From NCBI GenBank assembly GCA_045630805.1, contig JAZQTO010000001.1:624-64623 (forward strand): a stretch of DNA of 64,000 nucleotides, written 5' to 3'. A program made the translations under genes and the position numbers. The DNA comes from Paludibacteraceae bacterium (GTDB lineage Bacteria > Bacteroidota > Bacteroidia > Bacteroidales > Paludibacteraceae). Shown piece after piece: positions 2,094 to 46,300 of the stretch (positions within the stretch are counted from its first letter, which is position 1; each line of letters begins with the position of its first letter). The notes beneath the pieces are model-generated. The model saw nothing but the letters and a program-made list of their open reading frames with translations. It was not told the origin of the DNA and searched no databases.

Positions 2094-3200
2094 TTATACG
2101 TTAAACAAGAAGTGCATGATGTCGCCGTCTTGTACGACATACTCTTTGCCCTCTATGCCGAGTTTACCTGCTTGACGGCAAGCGGACTCGCCACCGAGTG
2201 CGATATAATCATCATATTTAATCACCTCTGCACGGATAAAACCACGCTCAAAGTCAGAGTGAATCACACCAGCACATTGAGGCGCTTTACTACCTGCCTT
2301 GAAGGTCCAAGCACGTACTTCATCGCTACCTGCGGTGAGGAAAGTGCGAAGCTCAAGCAAAGCATATGCTGCCTTGATAAGGCGGCTCACACCTGACTCA
2401 GAAAGTCCGATTTCATCGAGGAACATCTGACGCTCTTCGTAAGTCTCGAGTTCGGCAATCTCGCTCTCAATCTTAGCAGCCACGATGAGCACTTGTGCAT
2501 TCTCGTCCTTGACTGCCTCGCGCACTTGCTCTACGTATTTATTGCCGTTGACAGCAGAGTTCTCGTCCACGTTGCAGACATAGAGCACAGGTTTGCTAGT
2601 GAGGAGCATTGTCTCTTTAGCCACGAGTTCTTCGTCCTTGTTGATGAGTTCTACGGTACGAGCAGACTTGCCTTGTGAGAGCGCCTCACGGTACTTGAGG
2701 AGTACATCGAGTGCCACTTTGGCTTGTTTGTCGCCACCTACACGCACTTGTTTCTCGATTTTTTGGATGCGAGATTCTACCGTCTCAAGGTCCTTGAGTT
2801 GGAGCTCTGCATCAATGATATCTTTGTCTCGGATAGGATCCACAGAGCCATCTACGTGTACTACGTTATCGTCGTCGAAGCAACGGAGTACGTGGATGAT
2901 GGCATCCGTCTCACGGATATTCGCGAGGAACTTATTTCCAAGTCCTTCGCCTTTGCTTGCGCCTTTGACCAATCCCGCAATATCTACGATTTCAACGGTA
3001 GTTGGGATCACACCGCGCTCTGGTTTGCAGAGTTCGCCAAGCTTAATAAGTCGCTCGTCTGGTACGGTGATCACACCTACGTTTGGTTCAATCGTACAGA
3101 AAGGGAAGTTCGCCGATTGTGCCTTGGCATTGCTAAGGCAATTGAAGAGGGTCGATTTGCCTACGTTAGGCAGACCCACGATTCCACATTGTAAAGCCAT
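2094..3200 (-). CDS. ychF: Ribosome-binding ATPase YchF
   Basis: P-loop GIVGLPNVGKSTLFN, TGS-like C-terminus and YchF-typical length. I prefer the start at MALQCGIVG (ATG at 3198-3200). The 16-codon upstream extension in the ORF track runs into the repeat element. Confidence 0.93.
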   Translation of the reverse strand: MALQCGIVGLPNVGKSTLFNCLSNAKAQSANFPFCTIEPNVGVITVPDERLIKLGELCKPERGVIPTTVEIVDIAGLVKGASKGEGLGNKFLANIRETDAIIHVLRCFDDDNVVHVDGSVDPIRDKDIIDAELQLKDLETVESRIQKIEKQVRVGGDKQAKVALDVLLKYREALSQGKSARTVELINKDEELVAKETMLLTSKPVLYVCNVDENSAVNGNKYVEQVREAVKDENAQVLIVAAKIESEIAELETYEERQMFLDEIGLSESGVSRLIKAAYALLELRTFLTAGSDEVRAWTFKAGSKAPQCAGVIHSDFERGFIRAEVIKYDDYIALGGESACRQAGKLGIEGKEYVVQDGDIMHFLFNV

Positions 3201-3211
3201 ATATTCTAGTT

Positions 3212-3381
3212 TTAGATCGCTCGCGTTGCTCGCTGTAGATCGTTTCACTGTAGATCACTTCGCTTCGCTCGTTGTAGATCGCTCGTTACACTCGCTGTAG
3301 ATTATTGAGGTAGTCTACAGGCGAAGCCGATCTAAGTTCTACAGGCGCTTTGCGCCGATCTACAGCCCGCAGGGCGATCTG
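3212..3381 (+). repeat. GATC-dense palindromic intergenic repeat, copy B
   Basis: Near-identical to copy A in the same orientation. It fills the ychF-gpmI spacer. Confidence 0.85.
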
Positions 3382-3386
3382 TTTTA

Positions 3387-4916
3387 TTAATTCTTAATAA
3401 GATTATGTCCTGTCATTTCTGCTGGTTGCTCTACGCCGAGGATGTGGCAGAGCGATGGAGCCACATCCGCGAGGATACCATCTTCCAATTGCGCATCGGT
3501 GTGCTCTTTGCTTACATACACGAATGGCACAGGGTTGAGTGAGTGCGCGGTGTTAGGTGAACCGTCGGCGTTAATCGCGTTGTCGCAGTTACCGTGATCC
3601 GCAATGATGATGATCTCGTAGTCATTCTTGAGAGCAGTAGTCACCACTTTATCTACGCATTCATCGATCGTTTTAACCGCTTTCTCAATAGCCGCATACA
3701 CGCCGGTGTGACCCACCATGTCGCCGTTGGCGAAGTTGAGGGTGATATAGTCGTACTTTTGTGTATCGAGTGCCTCGCAGAGTGCCTCGGTCACCTCAGG
3801 AGCAGACATCTCAGGTTGGAGATCGTAGGTAGCGACCTTGGGGGATGGAATCAAGATACGCTCCTCGCCTGCGTACTCTGCCTCGCGGCCGCCGTTGAAG
3901 AAGAAGGTCACGTGTGCGAACTTCTCGGTCTCAGCGATACGGAGTTGCTTCAATCCTGCGTTGCTAACGATTTCGCCCATGGTGTTTTGTACGTTCTCTT
4001 TGGGGAAGAGGATGTGCAAGCCTTGGAAGGAAGAATCGTATGGGGTCATACAATAGTATTGCAAGTTAGGGATGATGGTCATACCATTCTCAGGCATGTC
4101 TTGTTGGGTGAGCACGATGGTGAGCTCTTTCGCGCGGTCATTACGGTAGTTGAAGAAGATCACTACATCGCCTTCCTCGATGGTAGCCACTGGCTTGCCA
4201 TTACGAACATGTACGATTGGCTTAATGAACTCATCGGTTACGCCTTCTGCGTAGCTCTCTTCTACGGCCTTGAGCATATCTTCAGATGCTTTGCCTTCAC
4301 CCTTAACGATACAGTCGTAAGCCACTTTCACGCGCTCCCAACGTTTGTCGCGATCCATAGCGTAGAAGCGACCTTGGATAGACGCGATCTCGCCGCAGCT
4401 AGTAGCCAAGTGTTGTTGGAGTTGGTCGATGAAACCGAGACCAGACTTAGGGTCGGTATCACGACCATCCATAAAGCAGTGGATAAAGGTTTTGCCGTCT
4501 AATCCGTAAGTTTTAGCAATATCGCAGAGGTAGAACAGGTGGTCGAAAGAAGAGTGTACACCACCGTTAGAGGTCAATCCCATGAGGTGGAGTTTCTTGC
4601 CAGTCTCTTTGGCATAACCGAAAGCAGATTTGATTTCTGGGTTTTCGAGAATGCTACCGTCTTTGCAAGCACGGTTGATCTTTACGAGGTCTTGATACAC
4701 CACGCGACCAGCGCCGATGTTGAGGTGACCTACTTCGGAGTTACCCATTTGTCCATCAGGCAAACCTACATTTTCGCCACTAGCTTGGAGTTGGCTGTGT
4801 GGGTACTTCTCCAACAATGCGTCCCAATGTGGGGTTGGAGTGCAAGAGATAGCGTCGGCTTGTGATTTGTTTCCGATTCCCCAGCCGTCGAGAATCATAA
4901 GTAATGCTTTTGACAT
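3387..4916 (-). CDS. gpmI: 2,3-bisphosphoglycerate-independent phosphoglycerate mutase
   Basis: 509 aa. The N-terminus LMILDGWG...[13 protein letters not shown] and the C-terminal ADHGN motif are typical of iPGM. Confidence 0.95.
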
Positions 4917-4987
4917 AGTTGTATGTTATTTTAGTTATTTTCCGTAGTTTTCATAGCCGCCTTGTCGGCACTATAACAAAAATCATG

Positions 4988-4995
4988 CAAAGGTA
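4988..4995 (-). promoter_or_regulatory. Bacteroidota -7 promoter box (TACCTTTG) for gpmI
   Basis: The reverse complement of 'caaaggta' lies 72 nt upstream of the gpmI ATG. Confidence 0.5.
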
Positions 4996-5093
4996 CAACA
5001 AAAATTGCATATATGCAAATTTTTAAGCAAAACTATACAAAAATGGAGCACTTCATGTGAAATGCTCCATATATCAAGTTTGCAAAGTAGTGT

Positions 5094-5759
5094 TTATCGA
5101 ACGTATTTTTTGAGGATTGGTAGGATCACACCTTCCATCACGGTATAACCATCAGGATTAGGGTGAACACCATCTTTTGAGTACTTAACTGGCAAGCCAC
5201 CTTGATCATCTACGAGTGCAGAATAGTAGTCCACGTAAGGGATTTTATTCTCTTTGGCATACGCCTTGATCATCTCGTTGAGTTTAACAATATCCTGTGC
5301 AGGCTGAAGGTCAGGACGCCACTTAAAACGATTGGCAGGAAGTGTAGAGCAAACGATAGGTTTGATACGATGGAATCGGGCCAAATCGCACATTGACTTG
5401 ATGTTTTGCAAGATATGTTCGTGGGTAATAGGACCATTGTTTTCAGCAATATCATTGGTACCACAAAGGATAACAACTACCTGAGGTTTGAGATTGATTA
5501 CATCTTCTTGAAAACGAACGAGCATTTGCGAAGACACTTGACCACTAATACCACGACCCAAGAAATGATTAGCAGTGAAAAACTCGGGGTGAGCATCTGG
5601 CCAACAATCGGTAATCGAGTTACCCATAAACACTACTTTAGGTTGATAGGCGAGAGAATCGTTTTTACCCTCATAGCGATAGAACTGTGCCCAATCTTTG
5701 TTGGTAGCATAGAGTGTAGTTGCTACCATGATGAGCGAAAGAAATAATAAGCGTTTCAT
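5094..5759 (-). CDS. SGNH/GDSL-family hydrolase (secreted esterase/acylhydrolase)
   Basis: Blocks FMGNSIT (Ser nucleophile), GTND and DGVHPN. Signal peptide starts at MKRLLFLSLIMV. An alternative upstream start lies at 5798. Confidence 0.8.
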   Translation of the reverse strand: MKRLLFLSLIMVATTLYATNKDWAQFYRYEGKNDSLAYQPKVVFMGNSITDCWPDAHPEFFTANHFLGRGISGQVSSQMLVRFQEDVINLKPQVVVILCGTNDIAENNGPITHEHILQNIKSMCDLARFHRIKPIVCSTLPANRFKWRPDLQPAQDIVKLNEMIKAYAKENKIPYVDYYSALVDDQGGLPVKYSKDGVHPNPDGYTVMEGVILPILKKYVR

Positions 5760-5908
5760 TATCAGTATTTTTAAGATTTTTATACTATTTGTTTGCAAAA
5801 CGGCGCAAAATTACTATTTTTTTTTGACATATACAAGAAAACGTTTGCGTATTACGAAAAAAAGCAGTAATTTTGTCGCGTAAATTGAAATAACAAACAT
5901 CTCAATAC

Positions 5909-8900
5909 ATGAAAAAGACCTTTCTACTTCTGAGCCTGCTTTTTAGTGTGGCAGTTTCTAGTCTCTATGCGGCTAGTCCAAAAGATGAATTTCGTGCTAC
6001 ATGGTTAGCAACAGTATTTAGTATTGACTGGCCTAAAACGTCAGCGACTACTACAGCCAATCGTACTGCACAGCAAAAAGAATTGACCGATATCTTCGAC
6101 AAGATGAAGGCGGGCAACATGAATGCCGTATGCTTGCAAGTTCGTGGTCGTTCTGATGCATTCTACAAGTCCAGTTATGAGCCATGGGCTGCCGAATTGG
6201 CAGGTAGTCGTGGCAAAGACCCTGGTTATGATCCATTAGCGTTTGCCATAGAGGAAGCGCACAAGCGCGGTATGGAGTTGCACGTATGGGTGAACCCATT
6301 TCGTGTGACGAGTTCGGGCACCATCTCCACAAGTGATAAAGTGTGGCAGAACGCTGGTCAATGGATTATCAAGTATAATAATGGTACTTTTACTGGTCAA
6401 ATTATTGACCCAGGTTATCCTGAGGCACGTGAGTATGTGTTAGATGTGTTGATGGAGATCGTGGAGAACTATGATGTGGATGGTATCTTGATGGACGACT
6501 ATTTCTATCCCTATGGAGGAACAACCACAGAGGATGCTAAGTCCAAGTCCTTACATAAACCTTCCTCTGGTCTTATAGATCAAGACAAAGACGGTTCTAC
6601 CGACGATGATTGGCGCCGCAGCAATGTGGATGATATGATGAAGAAGTTGTATGACCGCATTCAAGCAACCAAACCATGGGTGCGTTTTGGTATGGGCACC
6701 TTTGGTATCTGGACCATGAAATCTGCTGTAGCAAGCGCTTATGGTATCTCGTTGCCAAGTGGTATCACAGGTTTGGATGACTACGAGGAGCAAGCTTGTA
6801 ACCCTGTAGAATGGGTGAAAGGTGGCTATGTGGACTATATCAACCCACAATTGTATTGGCCAACCACATCAACAGGTCAAAGTTACGAAAAACTCGTTAA
6901 ATGGTGGGGACAAGATGTATGTCAACATTTCTCTGATTTACTTCCAGGAAAGCAAAAAGTACACTTCTTCTCTAGCCAATCATGTAGCAGCAATACCGCT
7001 TCTTCAGAGATCATCAAGCAGATTGATCTTAATAGAAAGTACTTGTCTTCAGGCTATACCGGTTCGGTCTTCTACAATACCACAGCCTACTTGAAGATGT
7101 ATAGCGCATTGACTTCGCGCTTTGATTACAAGGCACTTCCGCCAGCTATGGATTGGAAGTCCACCGTTGCTTTAGGTGCTCCTGAGAACTTGACTTTGTC
7201 AGGTACCACCTTGATGTGGTCGCACCCAAGCGCAACACGTTTTACGGTATATGTGTATCCTAAGACTACAACTCTAGAAACTGCCAAGACTAATCCTGCG
7301 TATTTGAAAGGCATCGTGTATGGCAATAGTTATAGTGTGAGTGGAATTGACTTGAACAGTTACAATGTAGCGGTGTATAGCTATGACCGTTTTGGTGTAG
7401 AGCATGCTGCTGCGGTATATGGCGAGGGTTCGACCGATCCAGGCACCAATCCTAATCCAGATACAGGCAAAATCACATGGGAACTGAATGGTGGTGAGGT
7501 AAAGACTGTGACAGTAACTGTGCCAAGTATTTCAGATTTAGAGATGCAATTCAAGAATGATTACAATACCTATTTTGGAACATCTTTAGATGTATCACGT
7601 GATCTTACAGGTTTCTTGTATGCTGGTTGCCCAACCAATGGCGGCAGTAATCTCGTGTATAATATGATGAATGCATCTAACTATGATTGGGCATGGTTGC
7701 GCGACTATATCATAGAAAAGTCTGCAAGCAATACAACAATTCAAGCGGCTTTGCAATCTGGTACTGATGCATATTGGCGATACAGTTTGGTTGCATTCTT
7801 TAGTGCAAGCGCTGGTACTAATTCAGAATATACAGTGGATTTCTCAATCGCAGGTCAGTCTTCCGTATGGGGACCTGTATATCAGACAGCACATGGTGCC
7901 GTGTCATTGCCAACCTATGTCACCAGCACATATACCTTGCCTACCCCTACTCACCCACAAGGATATACTTTCTTAGGTTGGTATGATAATCCTGAGTTTA
8001 CAGGTAGTCCTCTAACCACAATTCCAGCGGGTTGGACAGGAACATTGTATGCAAGATGGGATACAGGTTCTACCGACCCAGTAGATCCAACTAAAGAGGT
8101 CATTTTTTGGGAACTTAACGGCGGACATGTACCCGCTGAAGTGCCTTCTAACTTGGAATTATGGGAGGCATTCAAACCTTATTACAAATCTTATTACAAC
8201 ATTGAGCGATCAGATATGCCTATAGAGAAGGTGGCTACTTTTGCCAATGAGAAGATGCAAGATATCATGACCAACAGCGCATCAGAGTATAAGTGGTTGG
8301 GTGATTATATCCTTACCATTGCTCCTGGTATCTCAGGTGAGAGTGCTTGGCGTTGGCATGTGCATGCGTTCTTCAACTGTAATGACGGAACGGTGAGCGG
8401 CAATCAATTGGTAGCAACCGCTAATTTCTCTGTGGCTGGTCAACCAAGTGAATGGGGCAACGCATATCAGAAAGTACATACTGCTGAGCTACCTAAATAT
8501 GTAACAACTACCTATATTTTACCTAATGCCCTTAAAGAGGGGTTTACTTTTGAGGGTTGGTATGATAATGCGGGGTTTACAGGCTCGGTCTTATCATCGA
8601 TTCCTGCAGGATGGGAAGGAACATTATATGCCAAGTGGGCAGAAGCAAGTACGGAACACCCACAGGTGATTTTTTGGTTCCTAAATGGCGGAACGGTCAA
8701 TGTAGAATTGCCTAAGTATGTGACAGAAGATTATACCTTACCTATACCTACGCGCGCAGGATACGTGTTTGAAGGTTGGTATAGTAATTCTAATTTCACT
8801 AGTTCGGAGATCACATTAATTACAGCAGGATGGGAAGGTTCTTTATATGCCAAATGGACAGAAGAAACACCTGAAGAAGTGATTTATTGGGTACTAAATG

Positions 8901-10846
8901 GTGGTACTGTAAGCGGTACGTTGCCATCATTCGTCACCAGTACTTACACCCTCCCCACCCCTACGCGCGAAGGATATATATTCGCAGGATGGTATGATAA
9001 TCCTAACTTTACAGGCACAGCGCTTACTTCTATTCCTGCGGGATGGGAAGGTACTTTGTACGCCAAATGGACTGCCGAGGAGAATACTGATGATATCAAG
9101 TGGGAACTAAATGGCGGTAGTTACAAAAATGGAACGCTACCAACCTCTGTTTCGAAACGATACACCTTGCCTAAATCATGGGAGCTGAATCCTCCATACA
9201 ATGGTTGTTCGTTTGAAGGTTGGTATGACAATGCTGAGTTTAGTGGTAGCAGTTTGACCCGTATTAATGCGAATTGGAAAGGCACTCTGTATGCTAAATG
9301 GGATTGCTCGGATAGTGATGCAGAAGTGATTTTCTGGTATTTGAATGGAGGAAAAGTTGAAGTGGGTTCTGTGACTATTCCATCGCAAGAGACACTATGG
9401 GAGAATTTCAAATCGGATTATAATAAATATTTCGGAACTAATCTGGATGCCACATTGTCAGGCGCAAGCAATTTCCTATACTCTGGTAGTTACTATTGGA
9501 AAAAGGAAGTAGGTACACTGATGACTGATGCTGATGCCGGTTGGAAATGGTTAGGCGACTATATTATCACTTTGGCTGGTGCTCCGGCTAACAATGACCT
9601 ATGGTGGCGTACACAATTGCACGCATTCTTCAACGCATTGTCTAAATACACATTAGGTGATTATACAGCAGCCAACTATGCTACCGCCGGTCAACCATCC
9701 GCATGGGGACCAGCATATAGTGCAGCACAACCTGTGGAACTGCCTAAGTATGTGGTAGAGACCTATATATTACCTACGCCCGTGCGCGAGGGATACACTT
9801 TCCGCGGATGGTTTGATAACGCCAACTTTGAGGGCTATGTACTGACTTCTATCCCTGCAGGTTGGGAAGGGTCATTATATGCAAAATGGAGTCAAAATGC
9901 ACCTGAGACAGTCATCTTCTGGGTACTTAATGGAGGTTATACTAGAACCACCTTACCAACCTATGTAACAGAGACCTACGTCTTGCCACCGCTTGTTCGA
10001 GATGGCTACATCTTTGCAGGATGGTATGATAATCCAGAGTTTACTGGTAGTCCTATCACAGAGATCCCTGCAGGTTGGGAAGGTACCCTATATGCTAAAT
10101 GGGAAGCAGGATCTAACGAACCAGAGACCACTGCCATCCAATGGGAACTCAATGGTGGACAAGAAAACCCATACAACTGGTCTAGCAAACAAGATATGTG
10201 GCTCAGTTTCCAAGATGACTACCGTGAGTTCTATGGCGTAGAGATCCGCAATTATGCAATAGATAGTTGCGCTAAATGGACATACGATGCATCGGGGGAT
10301 GGTAAGGCTATTACCGAGATGTTGACCTATGAAGAAAAATGGATTTGGCTACGCGAGTATATGGAGAAGGTGGCATATAATGCTAACTTCAACAATGGTC
10401 AGTTGGGTACAGCGGTATTATTGCGCTTTAGCTTGCATGCGTTCTTGAACAACTCACCTGCTAATGATAACACCTATAGCGGTAACCCAGACTACACCTT
10501 GAATGGACAACTTAGTTATTGGTATCTAGATTGGGGCTATACATGGAAAGGTCATTTGCCAACGACATTGACCTCGACATATGTCTTACCTAAACCATAT
10601 AAGGAGGGGCGTGAGTTCTTGGGATGGACCACAGATGCCCAAAGTAGAAATTATATCAATGAATTGCCTGCGGGCTTTATCGGTACGGTGTATGCTATCT
10701 GGGATGTAATGGACGATGTGACTACCTCTGTGGATGTAGTGGGTGCTGCACAACAAGGTCAGATGTATGACCTTTTGGGTCGCCCAGTTGATGAAAACTA
10801 CAAGGGTGTGGTGGTTATTAAGGGCCAAAAATACATGCTAAAATAA
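5909..10846 (+). CDS. Giant secreted multidomain protein: N-terminal GHL10/YngK-like glycoside-hydrolase-like domain, 8 Listeria-Bacteroides (Flg_new) repeats, 4 copies of an unassigned ~120-aa module, and a possible T9SS C-terminal tail
   Basis: Signal peptide MKKTFLLLSLLFSVAVSSLYA. EFRATWLATVFSIDWP matches the GHL10 N-terminus. Eight repeats of YTLPTPTR.GY.F.GWYDN..FTG..L..IPAGWEGTLYAKW. The C-terminal ...MYDLLGRPV...GVVVIKGQKYMLK resembles the distal strands of a T9SS sorting domain. Confidence 0.85.
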   Translation: MKKTFLLLSLLFSVAVSSLYAASPKDEFRATWLATVFSIDWPKTSATTTANRTAQQKELTDIFDKMKAGNMNAVCLQVRGRSDAFYKSSYEPWAAELAGSRGKDPGYDPLAFAIEEAHKRGMELHVWVNPFRVTSSGTISTSDKVWQNAGQWIIKYNNGTFTGQIIDPGYPEAREYVLDVLMEIVENYDVDGILMDDYFYPYGGTTTEDAKSKSLHKPSSGLIDQDKDGSTDDDWRRSNVDDMMKKLYDRIQATKPWVRFGMGTFGIWTMKSAVASAYGISLPSGITGLDDYEEQACNPVEWVKGGYVDYINPQLYWPTTSTGQSYEKLVKWWGQDVCQHFSDLLPGKQKVHFFSSQSCSSNTASSEIIKQIDLNRKYLSSGYTGSVFYNTTAYLKMYSALTSRFDYKALPPAMDWKSTVALGAPENLTLSGTTLMWSHPSATRFTVYVYPKTTTLETAKTNPAYLKGIVYGNSYSVSGIDLNSYNVAVYSYDRFGVEHAAAVYGEGSTDPGTNPNPDTGKITWELNGGEVKTVTVTVPSISDLEMQFKNDYNTYFGTSLDVSRDLTGFLYAGCPTNGGSNLVYNMMNASNYDWAWLRDYIIEKSASNTTIQAALQSGTDAYWRYSLVAFFSASAGTNSEYTVDFSIAGQSSVWGPVYQTAHGAVSLPTYVTSTYTLPTPTHPQGYTFLGWYDNPEFTGSPLTTIPAGWTGTLYARWDTGSTDPVDPTKEVIFWELNGGHVPAEVPSNLELWEAFKPYYKSYYNIERSDMPIEKVATFANEKMQDIMTNSASEYKWLGDYILTIAPGISGESAWRWHVHAFFNCNDGTVSGNQLVATANFSVAGQPSEWGNAYQKVHTAELPKYVTTTYILPNALKEGFTFEGWYDNAGFTGSVLSSIPAGWEGTLYAKWAEASTEHPQVIFWFLNGGTVNVELPKYVTEDYTLPIPTRAGYVFEGWYSNSNFTSSEITLITAGWEGSLYAKWTEETPEEVIYWVLNGGTVSGTLPSFVTSTYTLPTPTREGYIFAGWYDNPNFTGTALTSIPAGWEGTLYAKWTAEENTDDIKWELNGGSYKNGTLPTSVSKRYTLPKSWELNPPYNGCSFEGWYDNAEFSGSSLTRINANWKGTLYAKWDCSDSDAEVIFWYLNGGKVEVGSVTIPSQETLWENFKSDYNKYFGTNLDATLSGASNFLYSGSYYWKKEVGTLMTDADAGWKWLGDYIITLAGAPANNDLWWRTQLHAFFNALSKYTLGDYTAANYATAGQPSAWGPAYSAAQPVELPKYVVETYILPTPVREGYTFRGWFDNANFEGYVLTSIPAGWEGSLYAKWSQNAPETVIFWVLNGGYTRTTLPTYVTETYVLPPLVRDGYIFAGWYDNPEFTGSPITEIPAGWEGTLYAKWEAGSNEPETTAIQWELNGGQENPYNWSSKQDMWLSFQDDYREFYGVEIRNYAIDSCAKWTYDASGDGKAITEMLTYEEKWIWLREYMEKVAYNANFNNGQLGTAVLLRFSLHAFLNNSPANDNTYSGNPDYTLNGQLSYWYLDWGYTWKGHLPTTLTSTYVLPKPYKEGREFLGWTTDAQSRNYINELPAGFIGTVYAIWDVMDDVTTSVDVVGAAQQGQMYDLLGRPVDENYKGVVVIKGQKYMLK

Positions 10847-12463: not shown

Positions 12464-13225
12464 ATGAAAAAGACCCTTTGGCAAGAGTTTGCCCGCAACA
12501 CATTGATTTCCCTTGGCATCTACGCTGCCTTATTCCTTATATTATATATACTAGAGTGGTTTGTGCCTTCGCTCCGTGGCACCTTGTTGCAATGGCATGA
12601 TTTGGCATTCATTGTAGGTATTCCTGCCAGTGTAGCGGGTACAGCATATGTGCTAACCATTCAAAATCCCAAAAACTATACTGGCTTCGTGGGTGCGATC
12701 ACAATGGCTGCGCTCTTGGCATGGCAGTTTGCATTGTGGGGAAATTGGGATTTGGTGGTATTGCATTTTGCTTTGTTTATACCTTTTCAAACGACCTCGC
12801 TGCTCCGTTGGAGAAAACAAGCTTTGGAGAGCAAGGAGCAAGGAACTAGGAACCAAGATATATTGCCCTCGTGGCTCAATGCCAAGGGCGTGGTTTTCAA
12901 TATTGTATTTACCATTGTCATCGTATTGCTAGATGTGATCTTCGTGAGTTGGATGGCGGGCAATGACTTCGCAGATAATCTACTCAGCAAAGTTATGGGT
13001 GGCTTAATGATTGCTGCATCTATTCTGGCAAATTTCTGGATGATTCACAAGAAGATAGATACATGGATTTGGTGGATAGTCTATACCTTGGCTGGAATGG
13101 TGATTTATGTCTTAACTAGCAATATCTTCACGTTTGTATTGTTCCTTATTACGTTGGTACTCAATATAAAAGCTGCAATTGAGTGGATTAAAGTTGTGCA
13201 AGCCAATAAAGGTGCTGTTTGTTAA
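12464..13225 (+). CDS. pnuC: PnuC-family nicotinamide riboside (or related vitamin) transporter
   Basis: ~250-aa protein with 7-8 TM helices and Trp-rich helices (WQFALWGNWD, TWIWWIVY) as in PnuC. I prefer the ATG at 12464 (MKKTLWQEF). Confidence 0.6.
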   Translation: MKKTLWQEFARNTLISLGIYAALFLILYILEWFVPSLRGTLLQWHDLAFIVGIPASVAGTAYVLTIQNPKNYTGFVGAITMAALLAWQFALWGNWDLVVLHFALFIPFQTTSLLRWRKQALESKEQGTRNQDILPSWLNAKGVVFNIVFTIVIVLLDVIFVSWMAGNDFADNLLSKVMGGLMIAASILANFWMIHKKIDTWIWWIVYTLAGMVIYVLTSNIFTFVLFLITLVLNIKAAIEWIKVVQANKGAVC

Positions 13226-13292
13226 ATTGCTGAAGAAATTCAAAAGACAGAAAAAAAATAATTCAGTTTCACAAACTTTTCGTATTACTTTT

Positions 13293-13327
13293 GCCATTTA
13301 TGCAAAATTCGCATAAATGGCTTTTTC
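13293..13327 (+). terminator. Rho-independent terminator after pnuC
   Basis: Hairpin gccatttatgc-aaaattc-gcataaatggc followed by ttttt. Confidence 0.8.
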
Positions 13328-13442
13328 TTCTCTCTAAACACTAAACAGTAGCGCAGCGTCCACTAAACAAGACTTACCCTTAAAACTTTTAAAACTTCTA
13401 AAACTTTTTTACTCAAAATTTGCACATCCGCAAATTTTGTTG

Positions 13443-13450
13443 TATCTTTG
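13443..13450 (+). promoter_or_regulatory. Bacteroidota -7 promoter box (TATCTTTG) upstream of the CXXX-peptide operon, or of a leader or small RNA
   Basis: 'tgtatctttgcaccc' lies ~410 nt upstream of the precursor ATG. A structured region follows directly. Confidence 0.5.
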
Positions 13451-13500
13451 CACCCGCAATTCCACGCCGGGGATGTCTGCACGTCATCGGCTGGGGTAGC

Positions 13501-13522
13501 AGACATATTTAAAAGGCGTTTA
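13501..13522 (+). repeat. 22-nt direct repeat (agacatatttaaaaRgcgttta), left copy
   Basis: Matches 17901-17922 at 21 of 22 positions. The two copies are exactly 4400 bp apart and bracket the precursor-to-tatC cluster. Confidence 0.7.
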
Positions 13523-13863
13523 TTAGCGCTTTGTTCTGATGCTCTGAAATCTCGCAAATTTCAATCATCTTCGGAACTTAGCAACGATAGATGTCCTACG
13601 GGATATAGATTATCCCTCTTGTGCCTATATTGGTACGCCATTTGCGTATATGTCATATGCGCACACGCGTACCTTAACTATGTAGCACGAGAGTATATTT
13701 ATATTCGGCGTGGGCTTCGCGTTGTCGTTTCAAGATGATGGGCAATGCGAGAGCCTTAGAGCATGGAACGGCAATAGTCGGACTCCACGCTTTTTTTATA
13801 TGCCTAACGATTAACAACAATCCGCATAGTTGGGAGTCCCTGTGCAACAAAAACTTAAGTTTT

Positions 13864-14151
13864 ATGTCTAACAAAAAACAAAACGAAGAACTCCAATCGC
13901 GTAGAGAGTTTTTCAAAAAAGCTGCGAAAGCTGCGCTCCCTGTAGTAGGTGCTGTAGTTCTTTCAAGTATTCCGTTCGTAAAAGCAGAAGCAGCACCAGC
14001 AGGTTGCACATTTTCTGCATGTTCAGGTACATGTACAGGTTCATGTTCGGGTTCATGTTTGTCAGGATGTTTAGGAGGATGTAGCGGCAATGCGTGCAGA
14101 GTGAATTGCACTTACTCTTGTTCTGGAGGATGTGAAAGAGGTAATTTTTAG
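13864..14151 (+). CDS. Tat-signal CXXX-repeat precursor peptide (95 aa)
   Basis: Leader MSNKKQNEELQSRREFFKKAAKAALPVVGAVVLSSIPFVKAEAA contains SRRxFFK, an h-region and AxA. Core: PAGCTFSACSGTCTGSCSGSCLSGCLGGCSGNACRVNCTYSCSGGCERGNF, with 11 Cys mostly at i, i+4. This is the in-frame internal start of ORF 13735..14151. Confidence 0.8.
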   Translation: MSNKKQNEELQSRREFFKKAAKAALPVVGAVVLSSIPFVKAEAAPAGCTFSACSGTCTGSCSGSCLSGCLGGCSGNACRVNCTYSCSGGCERGNF

Positions 14152-14162
14152 TTCTGCAAGAA

Positions 14163-14249
14163 AATAGTATAGGTTGGTTTATCTTATACTATTTAAATGC
14201 TTTCATAACAAGGGGATATGTCAATTTCTTGGCAAATTCCTCTTGTTAT
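14163..14249 (+). promoter_or_regulatory. Two stem-loops in the precursor-maturase spacer (possible attenuator or processing site)
   Basis: Hairpin 1: aatagtatagg/cttatactatt (14163-14193). Hairpin 2: ataacaagggga/tcctcttgttat (14205-14249). Each has one mismatch. Confidence 0.4.
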
Positions 14250-14263
14250 AAACAATTGTTATT

Positions 14264-15490
14264 ATGCTACAATTAAAAATACAAAATAAAGCATGGAAAG
14301 AAGGAATGGCAAAATCCATTACCTTCATTGTAACCAAAGATTGCCAATTAGCATGTAAATATTGCTACCTTGTAGGCAAGAACGAGAAAGAGCGTATGCC
14401 TTTTGAAGTCGCAAAAACCGCTATTGATTATGTGTTAGACAGAGAAAACGATCTAAATTTTGCCTATGAATCAGTCGTGTGGGATTTTATTGGAGGTGAA
14501 CCATTCTTAGAGATAGACCTTATTGATAAGATTTGCGACTATATCAAACAAGAACTTTTCCGTCGCAATCACCATTGGTTTAACTCCTATCGTTTTAATT
14601 TCTCGACCAATGGAATCAACTATGACAGCGAGAAAGTACAACGCTTCATACAGAAGAATAAATCGCATATAAATATAGGTATAACCATTGATGGTACACG
14701 TCGTAAGCATGACCTTAACCGTATATGGAAAGGCGAAGGTCCTGAACGTGGTTCATATGATGATGTTGTTCGTAATATTCCTCTATGGACGAAGCAATTT
14801 CCTAATAGTGGCACAAAAGTAACTATCTCATCTGCTGATATTCCATATATTTGTGAATCAGTTTTGCATTTGTACGAATTAGGTATAAAGGAAGTGAATA
14901 TTAATTGTGTTTTTGAAAATGTATGGAATGAAGGAGATGATTTCCTTTTTGAAGAGCAACTCATGCAATTGGCTGACGCAATCATAGATAAAGATCTCTA
15001 CAAAGATTATGCTTGCTCATTCTTTATGGAAAATATTGGTAAACCAATGGATTGTAAGTATCAAAATCAAAACTGGTGTGGAGCTGGTAAGATGCTATCT
15101 ATTGATGCCGCTGGTAATTTCTATCCTTGTACTCGCTTTGCGCAATATTCTTTGCGCGATAAAGAAGCATGGATTATCGGTAATATACACGATGGCATAG
15201 ACAACAATAAACTGCGTCCATTTCTTACGCTGGACCGTTGTACTCAATCCTTAACCGAGTGCGTAGATTGTGAAGTGGCTGATGGTTGCGCATGGTGTCA
15301 AGGTGAAAACTTTGATGCGGCAAAAACGCATACCGTATATGAACGTGCAACAGCTATTTGCAAAATGCACAAAGCGCGCGTGCGTGCCAATAATTATTAT
15401 TGGAACAAACTCTACCGCAAATTGGAATTAGAAGGTAAACGCGAAGAGTTTGAACAGAATAAGAAACAGTCAAACGATATCATCTGCTAA
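14264..15490 (+). CDS. Radical SAM/SPASM peptide maturase (CXXX-repeat-target type)
   Basis: The rSAM cluster motif is CQLACKYC (CxxxCxxC). C-terminal SPASM cysteines: CGAGKMLSIDAAGNFYPC ... CVDCEVADGCAWC ... C. Confidence 0.9.
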   Translation: MLQLKIQNKAWKEGMAKSITFIVTKDCQLACKYCYLVGKNEKERMPFEVAKTAIDYVLDRENDLNFAYESVVWDFIGGEPFLEIDLIDKICDYIKQELFRRNHHWFNSYRFNFSTNGINYDSEKVQRFIQKNKSHINIGITIDGTRRKHDLNRIWKGEGPERGSYDDVVRNIPLWTKQFPNSGTKVTISSADIPYICESVLHLYELGIKEVNINCVFENVWNEGDDFLFEEQLMQLADAIIDKDLYKDYACSFFMENIGKPMDCKYQNQNWCGAGKMLSIDAAGNFYPCTRFAQYSLRDKEAWIIGNIHDGIDNNKLRPFLTLDRCTQSLTECVDCEVADGCAWCQGENFDAAKTHTVYERATAICKMHKARVRANNYYWNKLYRKLELEGKREEFEQNKKQSNDIIC

Positions 15491-15493
15491 GCC

Positions 15494-16447
15494 ATGAAAC
15501 CATATATGCAATATTTGGTTATCCTATTGGATGACACTAGCGTGGCTTACTGCCATGCCAATAATCCGCTCATAGAGCGAAACTTGATGCCTTTAGAAAC
15601 ATTGCGTAAAGCTATCCTCTTTGGCATGAAACAAAACTTGATGATTCAGTTTGTATATCCCAACTACGAACTCCCTTCGGAATACAACGAACTCATTGAG
15701 ACGATTGACCATGTGAAGATTGGAAGAGATGTGCAAGTGCTTGATTATGTGCCAACCACTTCGGATACCGACAATCTCGTATTGCGCTTGACTATTGCCG
15801 AATTTATCGCGAAGCAATACAACATTGCAGTTCTCTTGCCACAAACTACGCGCCTTAATATTTGCTTGACGGATATTGAATCATTTACTGATGAACAGAT
15901 TGAGGATTACAAAAAAGCATTGGCAACGCTCAATGCCGTTTTGCTCAATCTCTATAAGCAGGCAAAGAATCCACAACTCAATATCCTTACTGACCGTTTG
16001 CAACTCACCGAAATGCACAACTGCGAAGCAGGTGTTGGCAATATTACACTTGCGCCTAATGGCAAGTTCTATCTTTGCCCTGCGTTCTATTACGATGAGC
16101 AAATGGGTATTAGCAATCGCATGAATCATAAAACCAAAGATGCTTCGCGTAGTGTAGGAGATTTAGAGAGAGGGATTGACATTCCAAACAAACAACTCTT
16201 GCAACTTGACCATGCGCCACTTTGTCGTATTTGTGATGCATACCATTGCAATCGCTGTATTTGGCTTAATCAGAAACTTACTTGGGACAGCAATACCCCA
16301 TCACGCCAACAATGTATCATTTCGCACCTTGAGCGTAATGCTGCACGTGACTTGCAATTACAATTAAAAGAGGCGGGGTATCAAGTCACCAACGAGATAA
16401 AAGAAATCACATATTTAGATCCATTTGAAGTAAAGGAGGAATTTTAA
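15494..16447 (+). CDS. SPASM-domain protein lacking the radical-SAM CxxxCxxC (degenerate maturase paralogue)
   Basis: In the N-terminus LLDDTSVAYCHAN only one Cys of the triad remains. SPASM-like cysteines are retained: CEAGVGNITLAPNGKFYLCP ... CRICDAYHCNRCIW ... C. Confidence 0.8.
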   Translation: MKPYMQYLVILLDDTSVAYCHANNPLIERNLMPLETLRKAILFGMKQNLMIQFVYPNYELPSEYNELIETIDHVKIGRDVQVLDYVPTTSDTDNLVLRLTIAEFIAKQYNIAVLLPQTTRLNICLTDIESFTDEQIEDYKKALATLNAVLLNLYKQAKNPQLNILTDRLQLTEMHNCEAGVGNITLAPNGKFYLCPAFYYDEQMGISNRMNHKTKDASRSVGDLERGIDIPNKQLLQLDHAPLCRICDAYHCNRCIWLNQKLTWDSNTPSRQQCIISHLERNAARDLQLQLKEAGYQVTNEIKEITYLDPFEVKEEF

Positions 16448-16448
16448 C

Positions 16449-16742
16449 ATGAAAAAACTTGTAGGACAGGTAACTGTCGAAGAAAAGAACACCATTCAAA
16501 CGCTGTTTGAGCGTCGTAACGGATTGACCGAGTTAGCAAAAATTCTTACTGCGGACAATGTAGAATTATATGAAAAGCTCGTAAAAGACATGGGCGAAAC
16601 AGGCAGCAAGTTCCAACAATGGTGGGACGATATGGCTAAAAAATACAATTGGGAATCTTGCGAAGGCGGAAATTGGGAAATCAATTTTGACACTTGTGAG
16701 ATATACCTCAATTGTAACAATGAGTGCAACTGCAATAAATAA
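16449..16742 (+). CDS. Small (97-aa) acidic, Trp-rich protein of the CXXX-peptide system
   Basis: Starts 1 nt after the preceding stop codon. I recognise no domain. C-terminal sequence is CNNECNCNK. Confidence 0.65.
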
Positions 16743-16750
16743 CAATAACT

Positions 16751-16969
16751 ATGACACTACTAATGATTGGTGCACCTGAGATTATTTTTATAGTCATCAT
16801 CGTGCTATTGCTTTTCGGAGGCAAGAAAATTCCTGAACTAATGAAAGGAATGGGTAAAGGCGTTAAGATGTTCAAACAAGGTATGAACGAGATAGAAGAA
16901 GAGGTTAAACGCCCATCAGACGAACCACAACCTTCTACCGAAGAAGCGCCAAAGAAAGATGGAGAATAA
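16751..16969 (+). CDS. tatA: Twin-arginine translocase subunit TatA/E
   Basis: One N-terminal TM helix followed by [23 protein letters not shown], the TatA hinge and amphipathic-helix signature. Confidence 0.9.
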
Positions 16970-17756
16970 TCACGAAGAGAAAATGACCTTTTGGGAACAT
17001 GTCGAAGTGTTCCGAAAGGTTGTTTTCTGTTGCTTGGCTGTATGGCTCATTTGTGCTATTGCTGCGTTCTGCTTTAAGGATGCACTCTTTAGTGTGCTTT
17101 TTGCTCCCTCACAATCCGACTTTATTCTCTATCGCGGATTGTGTTGGTTGGCAGAGCGATTGTCTATGCCTGCGCTATGCCCAGGAGATTTTTCTATAGA
17201 CTTTATCAATACTGAACTTGCCTCGCAATTCACCACACACCTGCAAGTGGCAGTCATCATGGGTGTGCTGGTGGCATTTCCCTATTTGATCATTCAACTA
17301 TACGGATTTATTGCACCTGCGTTATACACTCAAGAAAAACGCTACTCCATCATGCTGATATTCTTCGGGGTGATATTGTTTGCAATGGGCGTATTGCTCA
17401 ACTATTTTGTGATATTCCCTTTCGCCTTTCGCTTCTTAAGTACTTATCAAGTGCAAGAGGTCGTAGTTAATCAAATCGCGCTAAAGTCGTATATATCAAC
17501 ACTCTTGGTGTTATCATTGCTTATGGGTATATTGTTCGAGATACCGATCATTGCCTATTTCTTGGCAAAATTGGGATTGATTGACAAGCCGCTATTAGTA
17601 CAATATCGCAAACATGCGATAGTCGTATTAGCCATTTTGTCAGCCGTCATTACCCCGACTGCGGATATTTTCACTTTGCTGTTAGTGACAGTACCGCTAT
17701 ACCTGCTTTATGAATTGAGTATTCATATCGTAGCACGAACAAAAGTGAAGGAATAA
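16959..17756 (+). CDS. tatC: Twin-arginine translocase subunit TatC
   Basis: 265 aa with 6 TM helices. N-terminal [12 protein letters not shown] resembles the TatC HL.ELR motif. Overlaps tatA by 11 nt. Confidence 0.88.
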
Positions 17757-17799
17757 AAATTTCTTTGAATAAATACTTGTACAATTCATAAAAAATCAT

Positions 17800-17807
17800 T
17801 ACCTTTG
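17800..17807 (+). promoter_or_regulatory. Bacteroidota -7 promoter box (TACCTTTG) downstream of tatC
   Basis: 'cattacctttgcaccta' is followed by a ~125-nt structured segment that ends in a terminator-like hairpin (17912-17940). Confidence 0.5.
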
Positions 17808-17900
17808 CACCTAAAAGCTCTGCGCCTGAATTGTGGAAGTGGGAGATGTTCCTTCTCGGAAGGTCAAACTATTTGACCAAATCCCCAGTCACGGCTTTCA

Positions 17901-17922
17901 AGACATATTTAAAAAGCGTTTA
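17901..17922 (+). repeat. 22-nt direct repeat, right copy
   Basis: agacatatttaaaaagcgttta; partner at 13501-13522. Overlaps the hairpin aaaagcgt...acgctttt followed by a T-run. Confidence 0.7.
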
Positions 17923-17996
17923 GAAGGTTCCACGCTTTTTCTATATTTATACCAACGGGGTGTTTGGAGCCAACTTCCCACAAAACATTAATAACA

Positions 17997-38036: not shown

Positions 38037-38044
38037 TAGATATG

Positions 38045-38075
38045 AAAAAAGGATGACCGATGGTCATCCTTTTTT
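38045..38075 (+). terminator. Intrinsic terminator after the TPR lipoprotein gene
   Basis: Hairpin ggatgacc-gat-ggtcatcc followed by tttttt. The T-run merges into attL. Confidence 0.8.
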
Positions 38076-38121
38076 GTAGCGGGACCCAGGATTGAACTGG
38101 GGACCTCATGATTATGAATCA
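38071..38121. repeat. attL: displaced 3' half of tRNA(CAU)
   Basis: Exact copy of 47321-47371. The match to the tRNA stops after the anticodon-arm sequence. Confidence 0.9.
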
Positions 38122-38569
38122 CCACAAGTTTATTAGAAAGCATTCTGTTTTGTTATTATAACATAGTGATTACATAGTATATATAAAGTCTTCTTCGATT
38201 CTGTTCGAAAACTTTCAGGAAAAATGTTGGTGGTTTTGTTGGTGGTTAGGATTTTTCTTGTACTTTTGTTTGAATTATCTAATATGATATTTTAAGATAA
38301 AAAGATAAGACAACACATGTTAGTTATAAATAACGAATATCGTTAAATTTTAAAGTAGTACAAACTAAAAATAGCACAAAGAGTGGTATAATGGGTATTC
38401 CCCCCAATATGACACGATAATTTTTCACACCTTAATTATATGTAGTTGCAAACTTGCACTATCCGCATGAACAAACAGTCTGATATTATTTTCATAGGTT
38501 ATTATGAAAAAAGCCGGTAGTATAACTACTGGCCTTTTTCTCTAAATGGAATCACCTATCTTAGTTCTA

Positions 38570-40135: not shown

Positions 40136-40694
40136 ACGTTTGAAATTTTAAGATTGTTAATATAAATGCACAAAAAAAGTGTGAACTTTTGCAAATATTA
40201 GTTCTTTCGGGCATCCACTCCCATACTCTCCAATATATACAGAAAGTCCACACCAAAGGTGCGAACATTCGCGATATTATAGGAAGAGTACTTTACAATG
40301 TTGTGGATGATTGAAAGAATCCCTTAATAAAGCAAATGCTTTATATGTTTATGTAGTTGTTGTTTATTTTACCATAGGCAGTTGTCGTTTGATTTGTGGT
40401 GCAAAGATACTATAAAAATCTGACATGAGCAAATAAAAATCAAAGAAAGAGAGCATTTTCCCTCTTTCCCTGATTAAATGTAATATAGAAACTTATACTA
40501 TTTCAAATTCTTTTTTATCGTTGAACCGTATTTATACTGATATGGGGTGGACTTCGCAGCGTGTAAATGGGGCAAAGTTGATGATGAAAGGAAGGAACTA
40601 TCATCAAAGGCACAAATAATCTTAATACTCTGATAGATATTTGTAATTATATCAATGGCAAAGATTAACAATAAGGAAGACATAACCGCTTTCC

Positions 40695-41984: not shown

Positions 41985-42427
41985 ATATTAGTTTTTTAAT
42001 GTTGCTCAACAATATCGCTGAGTACATCCAAATATAGCAACTTTTAAATTAAAAAAATAAAGTAAAAAAACACATTTAAAATAATTAAATAAAATATATT
42101 AAAAAAAATACACCTTCTTATATATAAATAAAAAATACAAATATTTTTCTTTATAATGTATTGATGAACAGAGGATTATATGTAATTATTCAACAATAAT
42201 TAATTTAAAACAAACATCAAATATACACGAATAAGACTGTCAGATATGTTATTTTTTTATACCTTCCTACCTCATTTCTACCGCAAAGACCGTGTGAAAC
42301 CCACCCCAAAACTTAGGGGGGGGCGGTAGTATAGATAGCATTCCCCTTGTTGGACAAAAAAATTTTTCAGAAAATTTTTATTTTTTTTAAAAGGTAAACT
42401 ATTTATATTAAACAAACTAAATAAACT

Positions 42428-42592
42428 ATGAGAGCATATAGAGAATTATCCGACTTAACGAAGCAAAAAATAAGCAATGGTATGAAGAAATATCACGCAA
42501 ATAAGACCGTAGCGGAGCAACACAGAACAAGACAAAATCAATCAATGAAAATGAAGGAGTATTGGTCGAATATTCCCTCGAAGAGCGTTTAA
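42428..42592 (+). CDS. Small (54-aa) basic protein with a NUMOD3-like motif
   Basis: The ORF is shorter than the shortest entry in the ORF track. MRAYRELSDLTKQKISNGMKKYHANK resembles the NUMOD3 DNA-binding repeat as I recall it. Confidence 0.3.
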   Translation: MRAYRELSDLTKQKISNGMKKYHANKTVAEQHRTRQNQSMKMKEYWSNIPSKSV

Positions 42593-42601
42593 AAAAAAGC
42601 A

Positions 42602-43876: not shown

Positions 43877-43883
43877 TCTATAT

Positions 43884-45476: not shown

Positions 45477-45510
45477 AATCTTATAATCTATTTTTAAGAG
45501 TTTGCATCTA

Positions 45511-46112: not shown

Positions 46113-46300
46113 AATTTTTGTTTTTTGTGTAATGATAAATCACATGTTATTTTTAAATGTGATGCAAAGGTACACATTTTTTCTGACATGTGCAAATATT
46201 TTTACGAAAAAATGCAAAAATAAATCACTTTTTGTGATTTATGTTGTATATTTGAAAAAAAAGTAGTAATTTTGCCGTGATTTTTAACATCACATACAAC

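Follow-up and report, generated by a model that had tools for sequence, protein, structure and literature searches.

A candidate maturation-and-export operon for a cysteine-rich peptide was analysed in the genome of a Paludibacteraceae bacterium (order Bacteroidales; assembly GCA_045630805.1, contig JAZQTO010000001.1), within a stretch of 64,000 nucleotides (nt) that is referred to here as the window and whose positions are used throughout. Six co-directional open reading frames (ORFs) follow one another on the plus strand at 13864-17756, separated by spacers of 112, 3, 1 and 8 nt and, between tatA and tatC, by an 11-nt overlap. This is exactly the arrangement that the first-pass annotation of the stretch had described. 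In order, the genes encode a short precursor peptide with a twin-arginine translocation (Tat) signal, a radical S-adenosylmethionine (rSAM) peptide maturase with a SPASM domain, a second maturase, a protein of 97 residues (p97), and the translocase components TatA and TatC. A structured leader RNA lies upstream of the precursor gene. Coordinates and family scores are collected in Table 1.

A total of 160 related loci was surveyed. The maturase-anchored set comprises 80 loci from contigs of one genome per species, annotated by phmmer searches and pattern scans; it contains 59 Bacteroidales-type and 12 Firmicutes-type loci, and 54 of the Bacteroidales loci carry enough downstream DNA to be informative. 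The closest relatives of the operon, among the matches listed, belong to Paludibacteraceae and other Bacteroidales metagenome-assembled genomes (MAGs).

The precursor reads MSNKKQNEELQ-SRREFFK-KAAKAALPVVGAVVLSSIPFVKAEA↓APAG, followed by 12 cysteines at C-x3/4-C spacing. Its Tat signal features can be read directly (SRREFFK, KAAKAALPVVGAVVLSSIPFV and AEA↓A); the generic TIGR01409 model gives no match to the precursor at E <= 0.01. The longest ORF opens at 13735, and the start at ATG 13864 is backed by the N-termini of homologues, which lie 8-13 residues before the arginine pair. A twin-arginine leader is present in 64 of the 68 CxxxC precursors detected in the 59 Bacteroidales-type loci, so that the leader type assigned in the first-pass annotation holds far beyond the window. 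In an arginine-anchored comparison of 71 distinct precursors, the pair itself is invariant, and F+3, F+4 and K+5 are kept in 90-94%. Among 100 matches to an RR-type signal in 1.3 Mb of related loci, 84 are CXXX precursors, and the other 16 represent the N-terminus of TatC itself or spurious ORFs. Moreover, conservation of the leader exceeds the Tat consensus. It extends over RRxFFKKAAKxxLPILGA, with 3.6-3.7 bits at L+12 and P+13 and 3.2 bits at G+16 in the 71 precursors, and a motif akin to it, K-x-[LI]-P-x-L, occurs in Rhodospirillales precursors. From this conservation past RRxFFK we infer that TatC is not the only reader of the leader. This suggests that the maturation proteins also recognise the Tat leader, with p97 or the second maturase as candidate readers.

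Beyond the leader, the cores are hypervariable and often present in several copies. Cysteine makes up 23% of their residues and is the sole conserved one, and 89% of the Cys-Cys gaps are exactly 3 residues long. Gly, Ser, Thr and Asn occupy most of the other positions, Pro is nearly absent and acidic residues are few (D 2.8%, E 2.1%); the core encoded in the window contains a single acidic residue. Against TIGR04117, the model of the Cys-Xaa-Xaa-Xaa repeat rSAM targets of a Syntrophobotulus paralogue family, the precursor scores 45.7 bits, narrowly under the cut-off of 50. By this measure, it is the same kind of peptide as the TIGR04117 targets, yet outside that paralogue model.

In some sister precursors, a lipobox stands in place of AxA and is followed by an acidic run (...LLTSCEIE..., ...LLASCDDDNEE..., ...LFTSCEPDDEDG...). 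Precursors that combine a lipobox with the Tat motif occur in loci L008, L010, L022, L036, L037, L039, L047, L059, L073, L075 and others. An acidic run after the lipobox cysteine resembles the surface-export signal of Bacteroidetes lipoproteins. This suggests that such variants are Tat-exported lipoproteins displayed at the cell surface.

The three maturation proteins match, above the curated cut-offs, the NCBIfam families that the first-pass annotation had named, and a Pfam scan of the operon proteins returned Radical_SAM, Fer4_12, TatA_B_E and TatC. In the rSAM protein, the CX3CX2C motif (C27/C31/C34) is invariant, as are seven SPASM cysteines (C272, C289, C333, C336, C342, C345 and C366). 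Its nearest named families all remain under their cut-offs: PapB (190.7 against 340), CcpM (128.1 against 500), SCIFF (116.5 against 425) and QhpD (91.8 against 453); the RumMC score is likewise too low (63 against 720). CteB (5WGG) is the only solved structure related to it by sequence (E 9e-23), and an exact-sequence look-up of the protein matched no record. Judged by these scores, the enzyme is related to thioether-forming maturases but belongs to a separate family. Since its closest characterised relatives all form Cys thioethers, thioethers are the likeliest chemistry, and by analogy the modification is most likely a series of intramolecular Cys thioether cross-links. Cysteine alone is conserved in the cores and the window core has one acidic residue, which means that Cys-Asp/Glu links of the PapB type cannot be general.

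The second maturase had been described as a SPASM-only paralogue. Its SPASM-type cysteines are indeed there, seven of them invariant, but the protein aligns with the rSAM family over residues 22-299 (hhalign probability 97.2%, E 2.9e-11), so that the SPASM-only description was rejected in favour of a full-length pseudo-radical-SAM paralogue. It has lost CX3CX2C, with C20 left of the three SAM-cluster cysteines, and has kept both barrel and SPASM domain. In Firmicutes, and in many representatives of about 700 residues at 50% clustering, this protein is fused C-terminally to the rSAM enzyme; the fusion implies that the two proteins act together.

The p97 protein, by contextual evidence, is a small cytoplasmic partner that occurs in Tat-type and ABC-type (ATP-binding cassette) systems alike. 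It has no Pfam match, and its profile finds no sequence match in the PDB. In an AlphaFold2 model of moderate confidence (pLDDT 73.4), a strand at the N-terminus is followed by four helices and, at the C-terminus, a beta-hairpin, and a Foldseek comparison of this model with the PDB gave nothing better than E 2.2. The proposal that p97 is a PqqD-like recognition element or another known fold was therefore rejected at the sensitivity of these searches. The families are large, with at least 8,000 maturase clusters at 90% identity (E <= 1e-30) and 6,824 clusters of p97.

The genes that follow the cassette are the second line of evidence. A tatC gene lies directly 3' of p97 in 39 of the 54 informative Bacteroidales loci (72%), across families and with differing flanking genes, and in linked loci tatA begins about 0-30 nt past p97 in the same orientation. 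The placement of tatA and tatC in the operon, as first annotated, is thus a common feature of the group. In the 12 Firmicutes-type loci, the maturases are fused, p97 is present and the short precursors lack the arginine pair. No tat gene was found in any of the 11 informative ones, and a full-length ABC exporter stands by the maturase in 12/12 Firmicutes-type as against 1/59 Bacteroidales loci. The Firmicutes cores share the same periodicity, with 90% of gaps equal to 3. A Rhodospirillales locus has RR leaders and no linked tat. In other words, export modules (an ABC transporter, or a Tat leader with tatAC) are exchanged around the same maturation core and the same core periodicity, which provides the best comparative evidence for a Tat route in diderm lineages. 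Tat is hence the predicted export route of Bacteroidales CXXX peptides.

One Firmicutes locus, that of Clostridium argentinense (L060), has, in addition to its ABC exporter, an ABC system of the FtsX type and a transporter of the ABC-2 type (2678-7912 and 13310-15876 of that locus). Transporters of these kinds are often used for bacteriocin self-immunity, which hints that Firmicutes CXXX products may be antimicrobial.

Whether tatA and tatC are dedicated to the peptide was addressed by a reciprocal, TatC-anchored survey of metagenome contigs, which gave 48 loci with at least 3 kb of upstream DNA. The cassette adjoins tatC in 24 of them and is lacking in the other 24. In 11 of the 24 loci without a cassette, a homology search found, 2-5 kb away, a homologue of a twin-arginine lipoprotein of about 465 residues, an aldo/keto reductase (AKR) with a C-terminal Cys-rich Fe-S region. 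With these counts, the first-pass description of the tatAC pair as private is not established. No Tat substrate of the AKR type was found in the window. In a sample that is small and biased, namely the 64-kb window and 1.3 Mb around cassettes, the CXXX precursors were the only proteins found with an RR signal. Across loci, Bacteroidales tatAC seems to sit beside one of its few clients. As further observations on the unlinked loci, the AKR lipoprotein is found in L091 (10416-11819), homologues of it occur in about 22 further TatC-anchored loci (e.g. L092, L106, L109, L111, L115, L128, L129, L139 and L143), and the tatAC pair of L139 is also near a NapG-like ferredoxin (3563-4261).

The relationships among the TatC proteins point to a more specific association. 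Linked and unlinked TatC form separate clades, and 99 of 100 nearest neighbours share their linkage status. The window TatC belongs to a CXXX-linked clade and is nearer (about 60%) to an unlinked rumen clade than to the TatC of L001 and L008. In these two loci, the maturases are close to those of the window (82-83% identity for the rSAM enzyme, 77-78% for the second maturase), but TatC is only 41-48% identical. One maturase lineage is thus joined to two distant TatC clades, so that the linkage is recurrent rather than accidental and arose or was reshuffled more than once. This comparison argues that tatAC adjacency is selected, and that "recurrently linked" is a better term than "private". Additionally, the Paraprevotella MAG CAMWUI01 contains two complete cassettes (L040 and L044), each with its own tatA-tatC, the two TatC proteins being 83% identical. 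If the binning is correct, this pair suggests that all six genes were duplicated or transferred together as one module.

The third component of the system is the RNA at its head. The 540-nt intergenic region 5' of the precursor gene is conserved at the DNA level across families. It contains a Bacteroidetes-type promoter, whose TTTG...TAnnTTTGC pattern is kept at the 5' edge of the RNA alignment and of which about 35 nt resemble the sequence directly 5' of both tRNA genes and of other genes in the window. The transcription start is predicted near 13458. The single transcription unit proposed in the first-pass annotation retains its six-gene extent, but its start moves upstream, to the predicted promoter at about 13420-13451, and the unit includes the RNA of about 340 nt. 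Searches with nhmmer found the leader RNA in 50 fetched loci, a number that rises to 63 when a profile is used, and a covariance model built on its 3' domain detects it in 41 of the 59 Bacteroidales-type loci and in the window. It is present as a single copy on the operon strand, 5' of the precursor, with two exceptions: L016 has a marginal match 3' of tatC, and L050 shows a weak echo in antisense. No match came from Firmicutes-type, Rhodospirillales or distant loci, and one came from the 24 unlinked tatAC loci. In Rfam 15, no family matches at gathering thresholds anywhere in the window, the region 13200-14300 giving only chance-level hits (E 0.3 and 0.79). Within the element no frame is consistently open, and the idea that it holds a conserved small ORF or leader peptide was rejected on that ground.

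The fold of this RNA is supported by covariation. In an alignment of 40 sequences, helices P1, P2 (in two parts), P3 and P4 together with a 7-bp loop-loop helix have 95.3% of their cells paired, compared with 31-53% in slid controls, and 19 of 31 pairs are changed on both sides, compared with 11.5 +/- 1.5 in shuffles (0/500 reach the observed value). The kissing helix is 99.3% paired, shows no one-sided changes and occurs in at least 9 matched variants. Two further helices were examined by an alignment-free test of cognate against non-cognate duplexes: for P5, the cognate duplex reaches -8.6 kcal/mol against -1.1 kcal/mol and wins in 38 of 40 copies, and for Hd it wins in 28 of 40. The hypervariable segments that flank P1 and P4 therefore pair together, which makes P1 and P4 arms of a four-way junction with kissing loops. 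On this model, P3 and P2 close a loop into which the entire junction is pseudoknotted. The window copy has a minimum free energy of -134.4 kcal/mol and a z-score of -7.0. An alternative termed Fold II, in which a 5' GGAAC-like segment pairs with the 5' strand of P3, found no support in the cognate-versus-non-cognate duplex test (6/40 copies). Another segment, AAAAGGCG (13511-18), could possibly compete for two CGCUUU segments. The predicted role of the leader RNA is that of a riboswitch-like attenuator of the operon.

Some further observations concern the same region. Within the kissing helix, conservation is highest where GCA pairs with UGC. These triplets correspond to the cysteine anticodon and codon, and the product of the operon is 23% Cys; the match may be a coincidence, or might conceivably reflect competition by tRNA-Cys. 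Between leader RNA and precursor, L074 (6312-7485) and L001 (6917-7249 and 7724-7993) carry extra small co-directional ORFs. One family of these small ORFs combines a Sec-type signal with a DG(L/Y)WSEW motif. The window has none of the extra ORFs.

Table 1. Features of the operon and its surroundings in the window, with family scores and curated NCBIfam cut-offs.
Feature	Position	Strand	Remarks
Precursor	13864..14151	+	95 aa; SRREFFK, h-region and AEA↓A as Tat signal; 12 Cys at C-x3(4)-C in a core of 52 aa
rSAM/SPASM peptide maturase, CXXX-repeat target family	14264..15490	+	408 aa; TIGR04115 623.7 bits (cut-off 350)
Second maturase, "CXXX repeat peptide maturase"	15494..16447	+	317 aa; TIGR04119 211.6 bits (cut-off 150); pseudo-radical-SAM paralogue
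p97, "CXXX repeat peptide modification system protein"	16449..16742	+	97 aa; TIGR04116 99.3 bits (cut-off 50)
tatA	16751..16969	+	72 aa; TIGR01411 64.3 bits (cut-off 53.9); PF02416
tatC	16959..17756	+	265 aa; TIGR00945 154.5 bits (cut-off 132.7); PF00902 195 bits
Bacteroidetes-type promoter (predicted)	13418..13451	+	-33 TTTG; -7 TAnnTTTG = TATCTTTG at 13444-13451
Structured leader RNA	13458..13798	+	about 340 nt, between promoter and precursor; covariation, no Rfam match
RNA helix Pa	13514-19/13526-31	+	
RNA helix Hd	13532-45/13757-64	+	
RNA hairpin P1	13546-62	+	
RNA helix P5	13563-71/13733-39	+	
RNA invariant GCAACG	13581-86	+	complementary to CGUUGC 13719-24
RNA variable insert	about 13611-13700	+	
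RNA helix P2	13707-14/13784-91	+	
RNA helix P3	13725-32/13763-72	+	
RNA hairpin P4	13740-56	+	
RNA kissing helix	13550-56/13746-52	+	7 bp; P1 loop UCUCGCA with P4 loop UGCGAGA
RNA U-run	13791-98	+	helix and U-run span 13784-13798, 65 nt before ATG
Intrinsic terminator of upstream pnuC-like gene	13293..13321	+	11-bp stem with 5 GC pairs, then T-run
Hairpin AAAAAGCGU...ACGCUUUUU with U-run	17901..17946	+	candidate operon terminator

The unit is bounded upstream by the terminator of the pnuC-like gene, whose sequence is kept in the closest relative, L004; rplI and rpmE are further upstream neighbours, and a gene for a BspA-like leucine-rich-repeat protein follows downstream. Within the operon, the 112-nt spacer between the precursor and rSAM genes contains two hairpins, at 14162-14194 and, with 12 bp, at 14207-14250 (RNAfold of 14152-14263: -33.7 kcal/mol for both together). 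They may act as an attenuator, a processing site or an element of mRNA stability that sets the ratio of precursor to enzyme. On the 3' side of tatC, a sequence resembling a -7 box, TTACCTTTGCA, is followed by a hairpin and U-run (17799-17946), and the hairpin at 17901-17946 probably serves as the operon terminator. Its halves match the ends of the leader RNA (95% to 13501-13522 at the 5' start and 94% to 13784-13801 at the 3' end), so it resembles the leader RNA with its interior deleted. As a conserved "mini-leader", this element was rejected, since no copy was found in other loci. Neither paralogues of the six genes nor a second cassette of this kind were found in the 64-kb window. Another short C-x3-C run, with 4 Cys, occurs at 10693-10731, and the composition profile of the window shows low G+C (31-36%) at 38000-48000 and 54000-60000 against 42-50% elsewhere.

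With moderate confidence, we read this locus as a RiPP-like operon (RiPP, a peptide made on the ribosome and modified after translation) of a gut or rumen Bacteroidales bacterium, devoted to maturation and export, with a Tat signal as leader and a transcript headed by an RNA. We infer a course of events that includes cytoplasmic modification, a fixed order, Tat dependence, a cleavage site and regulation by the RNA. Transcription from the promoter would first yield the pseudoknotted leader RNA, whose closing helix and U-run probably gate read-through into the genes. The 95-residue precursor would then be made in the cytoplasm, where the rSAM enzyme, with its degenerate paralogue and p97, would modify the core that bears a cysteine at every fourth residue; intramolecular Cys thioethers would be the likeliest products, by homology with PapB, CteB, the SCIFF maturases and QhpD. 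The cross-linked product would leave through the co-transcribed TatA/TatC. Oxygen-sensitive, SAM-dependent steps would be confined to the cytoplasm and the exported product would be cross-linked, which would account for an N-terminal extension that is a twin-arginine signal. Signal peptidase I would remove the leader at AEA↓A. In sister loci with a lipobox, this step would fall to signal peptidase II, and the products would be lipoproteins whose acidic tag resembles a surface-export signal. In effect, the Tat signal would double as a RiPP leader.

A broader proposal is more tentative, and we hold it to be rather doubtful in its full form. According to it, gut and rumen Bacteroidales, Segatella copri among them, would use the Tat signal as a RiPP leader for a large and hypervariable family of surface lipoproteins and Cys-ladder peptides cross-linked by rSAM enzymes. 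Their production would be gated by a riboswitch of a new class, large and pseudoknotted, with a four-way junction and kissing loops, that senses a metabolite, a metal or tRNA-Cys, and tat genes would have been captured repeatedly to form a self-contained make-and-export module.

Several observations weigh against the RiPP-like reading. Fifteen of the 54 cassettes keep RR leaders without a tat gene within 1.6-6.8 kb (at least 5.3 kb in 12). Unlinked pairs make up half of the related tatAC pairs, and many of them lie near other Tat substrates, so that Tat is a general machine that is not exclusive to CXXX peptides in the order. Bacteroidales tatAC may tend to adjoin whichever substrate is present, which could in part explain the adjacency. 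On the side of the chemistry, the CXXX cores show no defined donor-acceptor motif of the C-X3-D/E or Cys...Thr kind, and no RiPP recognition element (RRE) or PqqD-like domain was detected in p97 or the second maturase (Pfam for both; for p97 also PDB profile and Foldseek searches). For the RNA, both promoter and transcription start are predicted from sequence alone, about one in four Bacteroidales cassettes lacks the element, and an alternative terminator of compact form, in which the 3' strand of P3 pairs with the 3' strand of P2, found no covariation support in the duplex test (9/40 copies).

These points can be arranged into other explanations. The tatA-tatC pair might be the cell's only general one, a housekeeping translocase that lies beside one client, with no dedicated coupling beyond ordinary use; we consider this possible but on the unlikely side. 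It accords with the cassette-less half of the tatC loci and their AKR neighbours, with the RR-leader cassettes that have no tat nearby, and with a survey of seven Bacteroides genomes, each of which has both TatA and TatC (PMC6281302). It does not predict the tight spacing of tatA behind p97 in the same orientation, or a linkage kept in most informative loci across families and flanks. The separate clades of linked and unlinked TatC, the two distant TatC lineages that accompany one maturase lineage, the MAG with two cassettes that each have their own tatAC, and the lack of other RR-signal proteins in the DNA searched also speak against it. Moreover, this explanation weakens the word "private" rather than the claim that the peptides are exported by Tat. 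With regard to the product, the Cys array might instead bind a metal or an Fe-S-type cofactor, which the SPASM proteins would load or protect, with Tat being needed for the cofactor-bound cargo. Cores so rich in Cys, with Gly/Ser/Thr spacers, are metallothionein-like, Tat classically carries cofactor-loaded proteins, the clients beside unlinked tatAC are Fe-S proteins, and the second maturase has kept its auxiliary-cluster cysteines without a SAM cluster. Still, the active enzyme retains CX3CX2C intact, with thioether-forming peptide maturases as its nearest relatives, and a strict C-x3-C pattern with other residues free fits repeated enzymatic modification. The ABC exporters and FtsX/ABC-2-type pumps of Firmicutes are typical of bacteriocin clusters, and hypervariable cores in several paralogous copies would be odd for a cofactor carrier. 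A metal- or cluster-binding peptide is for these reasons improbable.

The upstream element, in turn, might be a small RNA gene in its own right, or a site of protein binding or processing, and simply have the cassette as its neighbour. It has a promoter-like sequence of its own and ends in a stem and U-run as a stand-alone small RNA does; in some loci it lies 1-5 kb 5' of the rSAM gene, and neither a ligand nor a covariation-backed alternative fold was found. However, in every clear match it stands on the operon strand, in single copy and 5' of the first cassette gene, and where it is distant, the gap is filled by further co-directional small ORFs or precursors. From the U-run (13798) to the ATG (13864), no further promoter-like box can be seen, and the RNA is absent from non-Bacteroidales cassettes and from all but one of the unlinked tatAC loci. 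This explanation appears somewhat unlikely, less so than a metal-binding product and a little more so than a housekeeping translocase. A RiPP-like operon with a Tat leader and an RNA-headed transcript remains the preferred reading.

If the Tat signal is indeed a RiPP leader, it would represent a distinct route for moving cross-linked peptides over the inner membrane of diderms, without a dedicated protease or ABC exporter. General signal peptidases would remove the leader, which would offer a handle for heterologous production and for predicting the mature terminus. The CXXX maturase family is very large, and dominant Bacteroidales of gut and rumen are among its carriers. Surface display of some products is suggested by the variants with lipobox and acidic tag, and functions directed at other bacteria or at the host by cores that are hypervariable and multi-copy. 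The leader RNA is a candidate riboswitch of unusual architecture, whose ligand would reveal what the system responds to.

The CXXX-repeat maturation system was defined in silico by Haft and Basu in 2011, as cited in a later paper (PMC10114670). The operon described here resembles it in that all three of its protein families are present above cut-off next to a gene for a CxxxC-repeat peptide, and differs from it by the missed TIGR04117 model, the Tat-signal precursor, tatAC and the structured leader RNA. The maturation family is therefore known, and what appears new from the sequence comparison is the Tat signal as RiPP leader, the co-encoded tatAC and a dedicated structured leader RNA. None of these three was met in the family descriptions and publications found, which is weak evidence given the incomplete coverage of the literature. 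The Firmicutes-type systems, such as that of Clostridium argentinense, share the three protein families, the C-x3-C periodicity and the composition. In contrast to the window operon, they have a fused maturase of about 700 residues, short non-RR leaders, an ABC exporter and often FtsX/ABC-2 pumps, with no tat and no leader RNA.

Among characterised enzymes, the closest rSAM/SPASM proteins are PapB of freyrasin and CteB of thermocellin (SCIFF), both of which act on repeated Cys motifs of a ribosomal peptide. PapB forms thioethers, and its substrate PapA has six C-X3-D/E motifs (PMC9413430); QhpD and CteB likewise form Cys thioethers (PMC10114670). In the window system, the repeat partner of each Cys is another Cys rather than Asp, Glu or Thr, a pseudo-rSAM protein and p97 are added, and export would depend on a Tat signal, not on a leader-cleaving transporter. 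The QhpC/QhpD system is similar in another respect, as its rSAM/SPASM enzyme introduces Cys thioethers in the cytoplasm into a small polypeptide that works in the periplasm (PMC10114670), which resembles the proposed order of cytoplasmic modification before export. QhpC is also a fixed-sequence enzyme subunit, unlike the hypervariable, multi-copy peptide family of the window. Here, the export routes differ as well. QhpC relies on a dedicated protease and an ABC exporter and is not known to use a Tat signal.

Complex leaders with loop-loop contacts, such as the kissing loop of the cobalamin riboswitch and the T-box leaders, provide the nearest comparison for the RNA. They share with it the 5' leader site, a large multi-helix fold, a conserved loop-loop helix and a 3' stem with U-run. 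No ligand or tRNA-binding signature was identified in the leader RNA. It is set apart from these leaders by its predicted four-way junction with two adjacent kissing arms, pseudoknotted into the P3/P2 loop.

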